NCBI GenBank assembly: GCA_016208085.1
Contig: JACQYT010000096.1
Coordinates: 1-14,372 of the forward strand
Direction of reading: 5' to 3'
DNA from: Elusimicrobiota bacterium
GTDB taxonomy: Bacteria > Elusimicrobiota > Elusimicrobia > Elusimicrobiales > UBA9959
Length of the DNA stretch: 14,372 bases
The notes beneath the pieces were generated by a model. It worked only from the letters and a program-made list of their open reading frames with translations, was not told the origin of the DNA and made no database searches. Shown here in pieces: positions 5,299 through 9,587 of this stretch. Position numbers and translations under genes: made by a program. How positions within the stretch are numbered: position 1 is the first letter of the stretch; the number at the start of each line of letters is the position of its first letter.

Positions 5299-5451
5299 GA
5301 GCCTCCGCAGAATAACTTGGACATCTGGAGGCACAGCCTTGAGTCGGATGCAAGGCGCGACGACGATAGTGTAGCAGCGCTACATTGAGGAGGAGCAACG
5401 CAGCAGCCGGCCAAAGATGTGCCTTCAAGTTATTCTGCGGAGGCTCCTTAG
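5293..5451. mobile_element. MITE-like element of 158 bp with 23-26-bp terminal inverted repeats
   Basis: Left arm aggagcctccgcagaataacttg (5297-5319) is the perfect reverse complement of the right arm caagttattctgcggaggctcct (5426-5448). The outer 3 nt match 2 of 3 (ctt against cta). The ~106-bp core has no long ORF and contains the short hairpin tgtagc-agc-gctaca. A degenerate second copy lies at 13531..13582. Confidence 0.5.
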
Positions 5452-5736
5452 CTCTATTATTAGCTTGCTTTTGACTGCCTGGGAAATCTCCCATAGGGTA
5501 TGGAGAGTGAGATTTTGCCCGCCCCGCTCTATCCGGGAGATAGTCTGCTGTTTCGTCCCCAGTTTCCTTGCCAGTTGAACCTGAGACATATGAGCGCGCT
5601 CGCGCGCCAAGGCAATCTGAACAGCTAAACGCGCTTCAATGTCCGCCTCTTCAAAGGCTTTCCGAAAACCGGGATCTTTTAGATCCTTTCTCAATACCTC
5701 GTTTAACGGAATCCCGGCTTGAATTTTTTTCTTCAT
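5425..5736 (-). CDS. higA: XRE-family helix-turn-helix antitoxin (HigA-like)
   Basis: Contains a canonical HTH (MSQVQLARKLGTKQQTISRIERGGQNLTLHTL). It starts 4 nt after the toxin stop (TAA-cgat-ATG), in the usual toxin-then-antitoxin hig order. The last 9 codons (ELRSLRRIT) are encoded by the right terminal repeat of the MITE-like element. Confidence 0.8.
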   Translation of the reverse strand: MKKKIQAGIPLNEVLRKDLKDPGFRKAFEEADIEARLAVQIALARERAHMSQVQLARKLGTKQQTISRIERGGQNLTLHTLWEISQAVKSKLIIELRSLRRIT

Positions 5737-5740
5737 ATCG

Positions 5741-6088
5741 TTAGTCCCCCTTCCTTCTTAACCAGTTCGCGAATGTCCGCTTGGAACGTTCAATCTCGGA
5801 CTTCGGCGCCACCTGCGTCTTCTTCAAGAAAGCATTGGTTATCAAAATTGTTTTACCACAAATCACATAAAGAAACCGGTGTTGATGATGCTCTATCGCA
5901 GGGCGAAGCTCACGGACATTCCTTTCCAACACATCGGCATAAGGCCTTGGTAAATTCGGTCCGTACTCCTGTAATAATGTAAGCCATTTCTTTGCTTTCG
6001 CCTCATGTTTTCTATTTAGGCTTTTAAGATAGTCTAAAGGCTGGCTGCATCCGTTTTCGTCCTGGTAGAATACGACTGTATAATCCAT
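5741..6088 (-). CDS. higB: RelE/ParE-superfamily toxin of the Gp49/HigB type (phage-related-protein family)
   Basis: The protein MDYTVVFYQDENGCSQPLDYLKSL...RELRP...HRFLYVICGKTILITNAFLKKTQVAPKSEIERSKRTF matches the Gp49-like HigB toxin pattern. The track ORF starts 6 codons upstream (6106), but those codons contain the -10 box. The start was placed at 6088 so the mRNA is leaderless. Confidence 0.8.
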   Translation of the reverse strand: MDYTVVFYQDENGCSQPLDYLKSLNRKHEAKAKKWLTLLQEYGPNLPRPYADVLERNVRELRPAIEHHQHRFLYVICGKTILITNAFLKKTQVAPKSEIERSKRTFANWLRRKGD

Positions 6089-6094
6089 AATATT

Positions 6095-6123
6095 AGTATA
6101 CAGCATATACGCTGTTTTGTCAA
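6095..6123 (-). promoter_or_regulatory. near-consensus sigma70 promoter (TTGACA, 17 bp spacer, TATACT) for higBA with a leaderless start
   Basis: Read on the minus strand: TTGACA (6123-6118), a 17-nt spacer, then TATACT (6100-6095). The -10 ends 6 nt before the ATG at 6088, so transcription is predicted to start at or next to the start codon. Confidence 0.6.
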
Positions 6124-6514
6124 GGGGGAAAGCAGGCGCCTTTTCCGGGTGTCTTTTTCCGCAGTGGAACTTCGTGATTATAAGTTGGCTGCGACCTTGG
6201 GGGTGGGGATGGATTTATCATCTGGGTTGGAATAAATATACAAAAAATAGCTGACCAAAAGGCCAGCCGGGGGGCGGCGGGGGTTTGCTGGTGCACGCCT
6301 TTCCGGCTTTCGGCCAAACTGTTGGAGCGAACCGCTATCATTCGGCGGCGGCGAGGACCGTATGTTCAAGCCGTCCGCCTAAAGCGGACGGCACGTTCCA
6401 CAGCCGGCGGAAACGGCTTGGCCGCTTCCCCATAAAGCCGGTCCCGGCGTGCGAGCGGCAAAACCCCGCCGGCACCCCGACCAATTATACAATAAGCGTT
6501 AGTATTGGAAAAAA

Positions 6515-7579
6515 TCAGTGTTTTATCTTTGAGTCCACGCCGAAGATGTGGGAGATCAGGGCGGCCCGGGCCCACATGCCGTTGCGCTCCTGGCGCCAGA
6601 AAACGGCGCGCGGGTCTTCGTCCACCGAAACCTCTATCTCGTGGCGCCGCGGGAGCGGGTGCATGATAACGCAGGTCTTCTTAATGACCTTTAGATGTTC
6701 ATGTTTGAAATAAAAAGGGGAATAATCCACTTTTTTTGACTCGCCGGACTTGTCGTGCTCGTCCTGGATGCGGGTCATGTAAATAGCGTCCGCGCCGTCC
6801 ATCACCGATGAAAAATCCCCGGTCTCGGTATACGGCATCTTGTGCCGCTTTAAAAACTCCAGGATGTCCTGTTCCATCCGGAACTGCTCCGGGGACACGA
6901 AGGCCAGCTTTATGTTCTTATAGTTTTTCATCAGGTAAGTGAGCGAACGTACGGTTCTGCCGCGCTTTAAATCTCCGACCATCACTATCGTTTTATTGTC
7001 CATCTCGCCGTTAAAACTCCTGTAAAGCGTGTAGGTGTCAAGCAACGCCTGGGTCGGGTGCTGGTCCTTGCCCGAGCCGCCGTTTATGATCGGCACCGGC
7101 CTGTTGGTGCGGTTCATCAACCAGGCCGTTTTCTCCACGAAACCGGGCGCCGGATGCCGCATGATTATTAGGTCGACGTAGCTTGAGAACGTGCGCACGG
7201 TGTCCTCGGGGCTTTCGCCCTTCACTTCGGAGGAAGTGGAGGTGTCGCGTATCTCGGAGATCTTTATCCCCAGGATATGACAGGCGTTCAGAAAAGAAAG
7301 GAAAGTTCTGGTGGACGGCTGGACGAAATAAAGCATCGCCCGCCTGTCGGACAAAAGGTTGGAGACGAAGTCCATGCCTTCTTTATGCTGCGTCAGCGTC
7401 CTTAAAGCCTCGGCCGTCTTAAAAAGATTGGTCAGGATCTCGCGGTTGAACTGCTGGGCGAAAAGGCAGTCGTAAAGACGGCCCTCTTTGGCGAAAAAAG
7501 GCAACTTTTCCGAGATTTCTTTTGAGTAAAACTCGTCCCAATTGGCGTTTATGCTGGTCATCACCGGGGTTCTTTCCAT
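6515..7579 (-). CDS. aspartate/ornithine carbamoyltransferase-family protein of the ATCase type, divergent, with an N-terminal extension of about 45 aa
   Basis: Carries the signature motifs STRTF (canonical is STRTR), HPTQ, HPLP (ATCase-type; OTCases have HCLP) and YMTRIQDEH (canonical is TRxQxER). It is the last gene of the flotillin operon. The start at 7579 is preferred over 7561, with a weak AAGGCGG SD. Confidence 0.75.
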   Translation of the reverse strand: MERTPVMTSINANWDEFYSKEISEKLPFFAKEGRLYDCLFAQQFNREILTNLFKTAEALRTLTQHKEGMDFVSNLLSDRRAMLYFVQPSTRTFLSFLNACHILGIKISEIRDTSTSSEVKGESPEDTVRTFSSYVDLIIMRHPAPGFVEKTAWLMNRTNRPVPIINGGSGKDQHPTQALLDTYTLYRSFNGEMDNKTIVMVGDLKRGRTVRSLTYLMKNYKNIKLAFVSPEQFRMEQDILEFLKRHKMPYTETGDFSSVMDGADAIYMTRIQDEHDKSGESKKVDYSPFYFKHEHLKVIKKTCVIMHPLPRRHEIEVSVDEDPRAVFWRQERNGMWARAALISHIFGVDSKIKH

Positions 7580-7627
7580 TTTACCGCCTTGTGCGTTATC
7601 CCTCGCCGACCCTGTGCCGGGAAAAAG

Positions 7628-8242
7628 TCAGTTGGAAGCGTCCTGTTCCGGAAGCGGCGGCGGGGGGATGGTCCGGGGCATAGCGACGGCGCCCGCCGCG
7701 CCGGGGCCGCTGTCCCAGCCACCGGGCTTTTCCACTAGGTCCACCAGCCTCAGGTTCCCCAGGCCGTCCACTTTGACCCGCGCGACGAATTTGCCGCTGT
7801 TCCAGTTCTTCCGCTGGTCGTCCTCGCTGACGAAATATTTTTCTATGCCGTAGCGCAGCTGGGGGCCGCCCCAGCGGCCCTGCCTTTGGCCGCGGACCCA
7901 GAGCTTCCCGTCGGAGGCCGGCTTTTCCTCCGCGCAGGCCTGGGACCCGTACACCGGTAATTCCTGTCCGCCCGCGCTGACCGTCCTGCCCGTCGGCGAC
8001 AGGTGCACGTGGACGGGGTCTTTCCGTTCCGCCAGGACCCTTTCGCAATTGGTTCCCTTCGGGGTGGCGATTTCGTACCTGAGCGCCAGGTAGGTGCCGC
8101 TCAGCAGGTCCCGCGGATCCACCGGGAGCGTGTCCAGGCAGAACTCGGCCACGGACCGGGACGAGAAAGAGAAAAGCCAGCCGGCCCAGGCGACGAAGAA
8201 AGCGAGCTGCAGGATGATCACGAGGCGGAGCTTGTTATTCAT
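7628..8242 (-). CDS. GDYXXLXY-domain membrane-anchored protein
   Basis: An N-terminal TM helix is followed by VDPRDLLSGTYLALRYEI, which matches the DPRDLLRGDYxxLRY core of the GDYXXLXY family. AGGAGG lies just upstream. The start overlaps the upstream gene's stop by 8 nt. Confidence 0.7.
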   Translation of the reverse strand: MNNKLRLVIILQLAFFVAWAGWLFSFSSRSVAEFCLDTLPVDPRDLLSGTYLALRYEIATPKGTNCERVLAERKDPVHVHLSPTGRTVSAGGQELPVYGSQACAEEKPASDGKLWVRGQRQGRWGGPQLRYGIEKYFVSEDDQRKNWNSGKFVARVKVDGLGNLRLVDLVEKPGGWDSGPGAAGAVAMPRTIPPPPLPEQDASN

Positions 8243-9587
8243 GCTGCCTCCTGGCGTTGGCGGCTTCTATCAGCGATTTTCGTGTTTTGTTCAGGAAATA
8301 AGCCAGGGCGCCCAGCACCAGCCCGCTGACGATGAAAGCCATGCCGGTCTTCATCAGCGTTCCGAAGATATCCATGAACCGGGTGATGATGATAAGAAAG
8401 ATGACGGCGACCCCGCCGTTGATGCGTTTCTCGTCCGATTCCATCGAGCCGGAAACGATCAGGCCGAGCCCCGAGAGGATGATAAGAGCATTCGCTATAA
8501 CCGCTATAGGCTTGGCCCCGGCCTCGGTGGCTCCGAACATCAAGAAGGCGGAGACCATCGAGATGAGCAGCAGGGCTTTGGCCGCCCAGTCTGCGGTCTT
8601 TCCGCTCCCTCCGGCTTTGACCGGCCTTAACACCGTCAGGGCCACGGCCACGGCGAAAATGATCAAGGCCGCGACGACTCCGGAGGGGGAATCCTCCCCG
8701 CGCGGCGCATAGGAAGGCTTGTAGTGCCAGAAGAACGTCATGCCGTAGACCACGGCGAACCAGGCGAGCATGGGCAGTCGCCCCGGCCCTTCGCCGATGG
8801 AGCTGATGCCCAGCCACAGTACCGTCAGCGACGCGGCCGCCAGCAGAATGAACGCCGGGCTGTGCAGCTGGAAGAAGGTGGGGCTCACCAGCGCTATGAA
8901 GAGCCATATCAGCGTTCCGCCAGCGACCCTGTCGCGCCAGGCGAAGGCCTTGAGGCGCGCGAAATATACCCAGAACAGCGCGCAGAATACGAGAAGCACG
9001 GCCAGCCAATGCGTCCAGGGAAAAGCAAAGTCCCCGGAAGTGAACCGCCACTCGACCAGCGAGAACATATTGTTCGGCCGGAAAGCCCCGAAGTAAGCCA
9101 CGCCGAGGAGCAGGACCATAGACAGCGCCGCTGCGATCCTGCGCCCGGTGAAGAAGGCCAGCGGCAGGGAAATCAGCGCCCAGGCGGCGAACGGCTTGAC
9201 CGGGTCGCCGGAGAGCTGGAATACCTGCGCGTAGAGGCCTATGCCGATGGGTGGCATGAAGAACCAGATCACCTCGGCCGGGATGCCGACCGCGGGCTTG
9301 TCCTCCCAGCGTATCGCCGCCTCGGCGACGGCGGCGTAGGCCGCCAGGAAAACCGCTACCTTCGCGATAGCGCCTATCTTGTCCCAGTTGTGCGCGATTA
9401 TAAGGGAGAGGCCGCCGGCGATGAAAATGCCGGCTATGATGCTTATCCAGTGCGCCGCTTTGAACGAGGCGAACAGGCGCTGCGCGTAGATGTTTTCATA
9501 CAGCGCGTCCGCTTGCTGCGGGGTTATAGTCCCCGATGCGGCGGCCGCCGCGAGGTCCCGCTTAAGGCGCTTGTAATAGGAGGCCAT
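8235..9587 (-). CDS. polytopic membrane protein of the DUF2157 type (likely with a fused DUF4401-like region)
   Basis: The N-terminus (MASYYKRLKRDL...TITPQQADALYENI followed by a TM-rich region with NWDKIG) resembles the DUF2157 family, which is typically encoded next to GDYXXLXY proteins. It has at least 10 predicted TM helices. Assigned from recalled family features, with no search run. Confidence 0.65.
   Translation of the reverse strand: MASYYKRLKRDLAAAAASGTITPQQADALYENIYAQRLFASFKAAHWISIIAGIFIAGGLSLIIAHNWDKIGAIAKVAVFLAAYAAVAEAAIRWEDKPAVGIPAEVIWFFMPPIGIGLYAQVFQLSGDPVKPFAAWALISLPLAFFTGRRIAAALSMVLLLGVAYFGAFRPNNMFSLVEWRFTSGDFAFPWTHWLAVLLVFCALFWVYFARLKAFAWRDRVAGGTLIWLFIALVSPTFFQLHSPAFILLAAASLTVLWLGISSIGEGPGRLPMLAWFAVVYGMTFFWHYKPSYAPRGEDSPSGVVAALIIFAVAVALTVLRPVKAGGSGKTADWAAKALLLISMVSAFLMFGATEAGAKPIAVIANALIILSGLGLIVSGSMESDEKRINGGVAVIFLIIITRFMDIFGTLMKTGMAFIVSGLVLGALAYFLNKTRKSLIEAANARRQHE

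Follow-up and report, generated by a model that had tools for sequence, protein, structure and literature searches.

The window analysed here, a stretch of 14,372 nucleotides from an Elusimicrobiota bacterium (contig JACQYT010000096.1), carries on its minus strand an ATG-started open reading frame (ORF) of 354 codons at 6515..7579. Its 354-amino-acid translation is very probably the catalytic chain of an aspartate carbamoyltransferase (ATCase; PyrB), which carries out the first committed step in making pyrimidines. Upstream of the gene lie a DUF2157/GDYXXLXY membrane-protein pair and an SPFH protein, and downstream a toxin-antitoxin pair. The protein belongs to a group of sequences, here called the Q50/aromatic-234 or Q-type subfamily, that departs from the Escherichia coli enzyme at residues 50 and 234. 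An earlier interpretation made from the letters alone (the sequence-only reading) had described an ATCase-like protein whose STRTF and TRIQDEH segments lack conserved arginines of the carbamoyl-phosphate and aspartate sites, and had proposed altered specificity or loss of activity. We consider it likely that the gene instead encodes a working ATCase that is a sequence variant of the family.

The ATCase-like character is borne out by several lines of evidence. The translation reads F85-V-Q87-P-S89-T-R91-T-F93, H174-P-T-Q177, M268-T-R270-I-Q272-D-E-H275, and H307-P-L-P-R311, so that both unusual segments and the ATCase-type HPTQ and HPLP are present as described. Pfam recognises the two-domain fold (OTCace_N, 1.7e-31; OTCace, 8.6e-28), and the protein scores 257.5 bits against TIGR00670, the NCBIfam ATCase equivalog, above the cut-off of 236.95. 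A second ATCase equivalog model, NF002032, is missed narrowly (235.3 versus 263). Scores against the NCBIfam models for ornithine carbamoyltransferase (OTCase), putrescine, YgeW, and acetylornithine carbamoyltransferases fall far under each cut-off. An OTCase is ruled out, as neither DxxxSMG nor HCLP occurs and TIGR00658 gives 97.7 against a cut-off of 280.85. Among proteins of solved structure it is closest to Arabidopsis PyrB (2e-62) and the ATCase domain of human CAD (3e-58). The window protein is 38% identical to E. coli PyrB by BLASTP and 33–38% identical to solved ATCases in a fold search. An AlphaFold2 model built from a 61-sequence alignment has a predicted local distance difference test (pLDDT) of 86.6 and a predicted template modelling score of 0.89, with confidence falling off only where the mobile 80s and 240s loops would lie. 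Its top Foldseek matches are complexes of ATCase with N-phosphonacetyl-L-aspartate (PALA) at TM scores of 0.86–0.89.

Two long ATCase subfamilies, NF006046 (PRK08192) and NF008853 (PRK11891), resemble the window protein in belonging to the ATCase branch, in extending beyond the core of about 300 residues (the models have 339 and 430 positions), and in carrying HPLP. The scores of 208 and 205 bits are fairly high, but membership in either is ruled out because they fall far under the cut-offs of 512 and 560. By its length, NF008853 appears to correspond to the second, approximately 430-residue ATCase of Burkholderia (PMC4581275); the Burkholderia proteins keep the FxExSTR and RxQxER motifs, whereas the window protein does not.

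E. coli PyrB was aligned with the window protein and 118 relatives, and functionally defined positions were read one by one using the ligand residues listed in a review of the family (PMC4581275). The carbamoyl-phosphate contacts S52, T53, R54, T55, R105, H134, Q137, and L267, together with S80 and K84 of the neighbouring chain, are invariant in all 118 relatives, and correspond in the window protein to S89, T90, R91, T92, R141, H174, Q177, L309, S116, and K120. The aspartate contacts R167, R229, and Q231 (window R208, R270, and Q272) are invariant in the same 118 sequences. This first shell, comprising STRT, S80/K84, R105, HPTQ, R167, RxQ, and HPLP, is shared with PyrB of Arabidopsis (6YW9), human CAD (5G1N), P. 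abyssi (1ML4), and E. coli (1D09), as is the two-domain OTCace fold.

The corresponding elements all lie on the minus strand. The carbamoyl-phosphate loop Q87-P-S89-T90-R91-T92-F93 (7301..7321; E. coli E50-A-S52-T53-R54-T55-R56) has STRT and the Q for E50 in 118/118 relatives, with F or Y replacing R56. The 80s loop from S116 to K120 (7220..7234; E. coli S80 and K84), which serves the active site of the neighbouring chain, is invariant in 118/118 and modelled at low pLDDT, as expected of a mobile loop. HPTQ (H174-Q177; 7049..7060; E. coli H134 and Q137) is also invariant in 118/118. In R206-G-R208 (6956..6964), R208 aligns with E. coli R167, which binds the aspartate alpha-carboxylate and takes part in domain closure, and R206 replaces Y165. 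The 240s loop T269-R270-I-Q272-D273-E274-H275 (6755..6775; E. coli T228-R229-V-Q231-K232-E233-R234) keeps R229, Q231, and E233 invariant, with R234 replaced by H, Y, or W and K232 by D. Finally, H307-P-L-P-R311 (6647..6661; E. coli P266-L267-P268-R269, preceded by a histidine provisionally numbered 265) is an invariant ATCase-type HPLP, and is neither HCLP nor H(T/S)LP.

The window protein thus differs from E. coli PyrB by E50 to Q, R56 to F, E60 to L (L or Q in relatives), Y165 to R, K232 to D, and R234 to H, in addition to an N-terminal extension of about 30 residues and a 7-residue insertion. In the E. coli enzyme a salt bridge of Glu50, Arg167, and Arg234 stabilises the closed arrangement of the domains (PMC6981877). 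Arg56 does not bind a ligand; it is linked most strongly to residue 60 and to Gly72, the latter on the other side of the catalytic-trimer interface (PMC6056424). Given these roles, the arginines that the sequence-only reading had placed in the carbamoyl-phosphate and aspartate sites are second-shell residues, and the substrate contacts themselves are untouched. Furthermore, the change of R234 to H is not a stand-alone loss, since its salt-bridge partner E50 changes along with it.

We examined how these positions vary together. The 120 nearest database proteins are 60–100% identical to the window protein; those with names are almost all from Elusimicrobia metagenome-assembled genomes (MAGs) and are annotated as ATCase. 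All 120 carry Q-P-STRT-[F/Y] and TR[IV]Q[D/N]E-[H/Y/W], which makes the substitutions a clade signature, as read from these sequences, rather than chance or sequencing noise. Covariation was tabulated for 124 full-length sequences, each representing a 50%-identity cluster from an exhaustive search. Residues E50 and R234 occur together in 69 representatives and Q50 with Y, W, or H at 234 in 44, with five mixed (Fisher p = 5e-28), and within canonical sequences alone a basic residue 56 pairs with an acidic residue 60 (odds ratio 12.5, p = 7e-6), although these tests count sequences as independent and shared ancestry inflates the statistics. Position 56 varies in both groups (R in 44, S in 9, M in 4, F in 4, and Y in 3 of the E50-type representatives), and human CAD reads STRTS in the same loop. 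This variability speaks against reading STRTF as a defect. Arginine at position 165, found in 118/118 relatives, goes with Q50 in 35 of 49 Q-type representatives. In a neighbour-joining tree 47 of 56 Q50 sequences form one deep clade. Because the Q type is essentially one clade, the association of residues 50 and 234 goes back to one or a few ancient changes rather than to many independent ones.

The subfamily reaches well beyond the Elusimicrobia. A profile of diverse Q-type sequences also finds it in MAGs of Desulfobacterales, Ignavibacteria, and 'Ca. Auribacter'. A pattern specific to the Q type, run against metagenomes, gave 120 loci with 107 ATCase-like ORFs, which fall into 83 clusters when grouped at 85% identity; almost all have Q50, F or Y at 56, and Y, W, or H at 234. 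The Q50/aromatic-234 subfamily is thus deep, widespread, and so far uncharacterised; we found no paper describing a variant with Q50 and a residue other than arginine at 234.

These observations suggest an enzyme that would carbamoylate L-aspartate from carbamoyl phosphate, giving N-carbamoyl-L-aspartate for de novo pyrimidine synthesis, with its first-shell active site kept whole and two second-shell ion pairs rebuilt. The E50–R234 interdomain lock of the closed, active state would be replaced by glutamine and His, Tyr, or Trp (Gln87 and His275 in the window), with Arg208, the equivalent of R167, retained. Similarly, the R56–E60 pair of the helix and trimer interface would give way to Phe or Tyr with Leu or Gln (window Phe93 and Leu97). 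The subfamily-wide exchange of the salt bridge for Gln and His argues that the odd motifs are the signature of a lineage and not of a broken or re-purposed enzyme. The annotation 'aspartate carbamoyltransferase' can therefore stay, and the motifs, though unusual, give no ground for inferring a defect. If the subfamily is active as we propose, the Glu50–Arg234 lock, central in textbooks to how E. coli ATCase closes its domains and achieves cooperativity, is replaceable wholesale by Gln with His, Tyr, or Trp in a large natural clade, which would offer a natural experiment on domain closure without a salt bridge.

Loss of activity, the other outcome foreseen by the sequence-only reading, is contradicted by strong purifying selection. 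Among 42 Elusimicrobiaceae orthologues the median ratio of nonsynonymous to synonymous substitution rates (dN/dS) is 0.15 (610 pairs), and the closest pairs give 0.02–0.08. These low values and the confident ATCase-like model make decay or loss of function unlikely, and dN/dS together with the invariant catalytic residues rules out a pseudogene. One could still imagine an inactive ATCase-like pseudoenzyme with a structural or regulatory role, comparable to PyrC' of Pseudomonas ATCase, which is dihydroorotase-like but inactive. The sole support for such a protein is the missing E50–R234 pair, whose mutation cuts activity in E. coli. A pseudoenzyme would have no need of R54, R105, H134, Q137, R229, and Q231 all intact, yet the catalytic and ligand residues are invariant across 60–100% identity under low dN/dS. 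We regard this explanation as very improbable.

An indication of the pathway comes from the genomic context of homologues. As the surroundings of the window gene gave no pathway clue, more distant members of the subfamily were sampled. In locus L188 (listed also as L199 and L200) the Q-type gene lies between genes for PyrR (NF003549, 226.8 versus 138) and dihydroorotase (TIGR00857, 422 versus 279), with overlapping gene ends. This arrangement is a classical pyrR-pyrB-pyrC operon. The evidence comes from a homologue 61% identical to the window protein, and not from the window organism itself; the homologue, of 331 amino acids, reads QPSTRTF and TRIQDEH like the window protein and holds the same place in the operon as an ordinary PyrB. 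A pyrB of the same signature in such an operon argues against a changed pathway role. The pyrB-pyrC overlap recurs in L140, and in one Elusimicrobia MAG pyrC lies two genes from the ATCase copy. In addition, the Q-type gene is flanked by purM in five lineages; argB takes this position in three. Phage-borne copies, described below, sit among genes of nucleotide metabolism and count on the same side. No canonical PyrB was found in 1.13 Mb of sequence flanking 66 Elusimicrobia loci, nor adjacent to any Q-type gene. The only relevant result of literature searches on Elusimicrobia pyrimidine metabolism is that Rs-D17 was inferred to make pyrimidines.

The purM-linked copies show a recurring arrangement of their own. 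In four metagenomic lineages the order is purM, Q-type ATCase, and a carbon-nitrogen-hydrolase (L103 3421-6464; L185, L177, and L135), and in a fifth (L071 6886-8951) purM again immediately precedes the ATCase gene. The hydrolase bears a weak likeness to deaminated-glutathione amidase and N-carbamoylputrescine amidase, below the cut-offs of both.

Several observations weigh against a working ATCase. FxExSTR and RxQxER are considered characteristic of ATCases, the latter being 'found in all known ATCases' (PMC4581275). The window protein matches neither: it reads F-V-Q-P-S-T-R for the first and R-I-Q-D-E-H for the second, where only the non-ligand Arg234 is replaced. The E50A mutant of E. coli ATCase is about 15-fold less active and has lost cooperativity (PMC6056424). 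PDB searches with the two variant segments alone found no solved structure in the Q50/non-Arg234 state, and we found no enzymatic or genetic study of any subfamily member in the literature. No pyr genes were found adjoining the ATCase gene in the window. A further point comes from a distant member of the subfamily in Candidatus Falkowbacteria, a bacterium of the candidate phyla radiation (CPR), at L072 8001-9092 (P0273). It reads FRQSSTRTR and TRLQNDY, is named 'hypothetical protein' at source, and has no pyr genes near it in L072. Its presence there is odd, as CPR bacteria are generally considered to be without de novo nucleotide synthesis.

Some of these observations would also suit a paralogue that is misannotated as ATCase and uses a second substrate other than aspartate, such as an aspartate analogue, beta-alanine, or ureidoglycine. 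The two motif departures, the NF002032 score under its cut-off, and the CPR homologue all point in this direction. There is also a precedent in ureidoglycine carbamoyltransferase (UGTCase) of Rubrobacter xylanophilus, an ATCase-branch enzyme with off-signature motifs that was once annotated as a 'pseudo ATCase' (PMC4581275). UGTCase has H(T/S)LP, with S258 and K261 replacing R229 and Q231 (PMC4581275); neither feature is present here, and the retention of HPLP and of R270 and Q272 rules out UGTCase as the identity of the window protein. Both sets of aspartate carboxylate-binding residues (R167 with K84, and R229 with Q231) are invariant, and the pyrR-pyrB-pyrC operon has the Q-type protein as its sole carbamoyltransferase. 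A change of substrate is accordingly improbable in our judgement, and an ATCase of divergent sequence accounts better for the conserved ligand residues and operon context. FxExSTR and RxQxER, which have been treated as universal ATCase signatures, would then be shown by this subfamily to be non-universal.

Another recurrent association involves the supply of carbamoyl phosphate. Of 81 non-redundant loci, 16 have genes for OTCase, carbamate kinase, or both immediately beside the Q-type gene, in most cases on the same strand; among the 56 loci in which both flanks can be seen, the number is 12. The neighbours score as bona fide OTCase (TIGR00658, 355–428 bits) and carbamate kinase (TIGR00746, 388 bits). 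Same-strand clusters of carbamate kinase, OTCase, and Q-type ATCase are found at L003 8010-11041, L077 8592-11080, and L078 8099-11089, in L101, L153, and others, and recur in unrelated lineages including an Ignavibacteria MAG (L078). Neither gene was found near the ATCase gene in the window or in 54 Elusimicrobiaceae loci.

This adjacency, at about 20% of diverse loci, also fits a catabolic or reversible carbamoyl-aspartate phosphorylase, and to that extent counts against a purely biosynthetic enzyme. Such a phosphorylase would convert N-carbamoyl-aspartate and phosphate to aspartate and carbamoyl phosphate, feeding carbamate kinase for ATP, and the closure lock loosened by Q and H in place of E and R would be a kinetic adaptation. 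A catabolic ATCase is listed as an open possibility in the family review (PMC4581275). Moreover, one Elusimicrobia MAG has a PreT/PreA-like, dihydropyrimidine-dehydrogenase-like pair (L001 15186-17821) 5 kb downstream of its ATCase gene, consisting of a pyridine-nucleotide oxidoreductase and a DHO_dh protein with 4Fe-4S domains; the pair was not seen in the other loci. However, no catabolic partner recurs (arginine deiminase, a dihydroorotase working in reverse, or other), and the recurrent partners argB, purM, pyrC, and pyrR are biosynthetic. Carbamate kinase can also work anabolically, providing OTCase and ATCase with carbamoyl phosphate (PMC6022934). The clustered Q-type loci resemble the system described there in gene adjacency; the window and the Elusimicrobiaceae loci, without a nearby kinase or OTCase, do not. 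We think a phosphorylase is a rather improbable explanation of the gene.

A bolder proposal, to which we give equally little credence, is that the Q50/aromatic-234 proteins form a kinetically distinct class of ATCase, with lock and N-terminal extension adapted to a complex with carbamate kinase and OTCase. Carbamoyl phosphate might be channelled into such a complex, or the enzyme might run reversibly and harvest ATP from carbamoyl-aspartate. If true, this class would be the 'catabolic ATCase' that the field has speculated on but never found. The frequent clustering with carbamate kinase and OTCase gives a modest hint at the organisation of carbamoyl phosphate in these uncultured lineages.

The regulation of the window enzyme also seems to differ from that of the E. 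coli-type (class B) holoenzyme, which is controlled by PyrI. With the E. coli protein as query, no PyrI homologue was found in the window, in the 66 Elusimicrobia loci, or beside the 107 subfamily genes from metagenomes. As PyrI is not found nearby, the window ATCase is probably an unregulated homotrimer.

The protein starts with a clade-specific N-terminal extension, residues 1–34 (7478..7579, minus strand). The sequence-only reading was right that an extension is present, but put it at about 45 residues; alignment to the 331-amino-acid homologue and to E. coli gives about 30. Window residue 35 pairs with residue 5 of the operon-embedded homologue, where the alignment begins, and with L5-Y6 of the E. 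coli protein, so that the extension is not present in the homologue. A further insertion of about seven residues ahead of the STRT loop brings the total offset to E. coli S52 to 37. W14, F17, K25, and F29 are nearly invariant in the family, and AlphaFold2 predicts three short helices with pLDDT of 87–92. From sequence conservation and this model, the extension appears to be an ordered, conserved addition of the Elusimicrobia branch.

Other features at the locus are less directly connected to the enzyme. A Shine-Dalgarno-like AAGGCGG, read from the sequence, lies 4 nucleotides 5' of the ATG (7584..7590, minus strand) and is a candidate ribosome binding site. About 250 nucleotides past the stop codon is a terminator-like hairpin followed by a T-run (6249..6268, minus strand), which was found by consensus scan; as the scan gave nine such sites in the region against 3.6 expected, it is weak evidence for a terminator. 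Scanning the window for tRNAs and for Rfam families, such as a leader that binds PyrR, gave no match.

Directly upstream of the ATCase gene, genes for a DUF2157 membrane protein and a GDYXXLXY protein occupy 7628-9587 on the same strand. The 48-base-pair gap has no obvious terminator, and these genes may be co-transcribed with the ATCase gene; a functional link is not apparent. Of 54 related loci, 39 contain a DUF2157-like cluster and 19 a GDYXXLXY-like cluster. Synteny is kept within the Elusimicrobiaceae (DUF2157, GDYXXLXY, MFS, NIF3, CysS, and others), but these are unrelated housekeeping genes and are uninformative on function. Downstream, between the ATCase gene and a convergent gene encoding 776 amino acids, are minus-strand ORFs for a Gp49/HigB-like toxin (5741-6106; PF05973, 1.6e-15) and an HTH_3/HTH_31 antitoxin-like protein (5425-5736). 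In a related contig (L002) a homologue of this convergent gene, encoding about 780 amino acids, directly follows the ATCase gene, so the toxin-antitoxin pair looks like a local insertion.

Three Elusimicrobia MAGs have two copies of the Q-type gene on separate contigs (L020 and L024; L028 and L039; L060 and L064). The cause may be bins that mix strains, or a genuine duplication. Q-type homologues are also found on phage-like contigs. An INPHARED search was uninformative, giving mostly canonical pyrB on mislabelled bacterial contigs. Two copies, at L074 8001-9014 and at L075 8004-8957 (the latter on IMG/VR UViG_3300025000_000061, 152 kb), read FKQPSTRTF and TRLQDEY and match PHROG phrog_37670, a family annotated as of 'unknown function'. 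Both lie within nucleotide-metabolism modules that include thymidylate synthase (ThyX or ThyA), dCMP deaminase, and dNMP kinase, and may be auxiliary metabolic genes.

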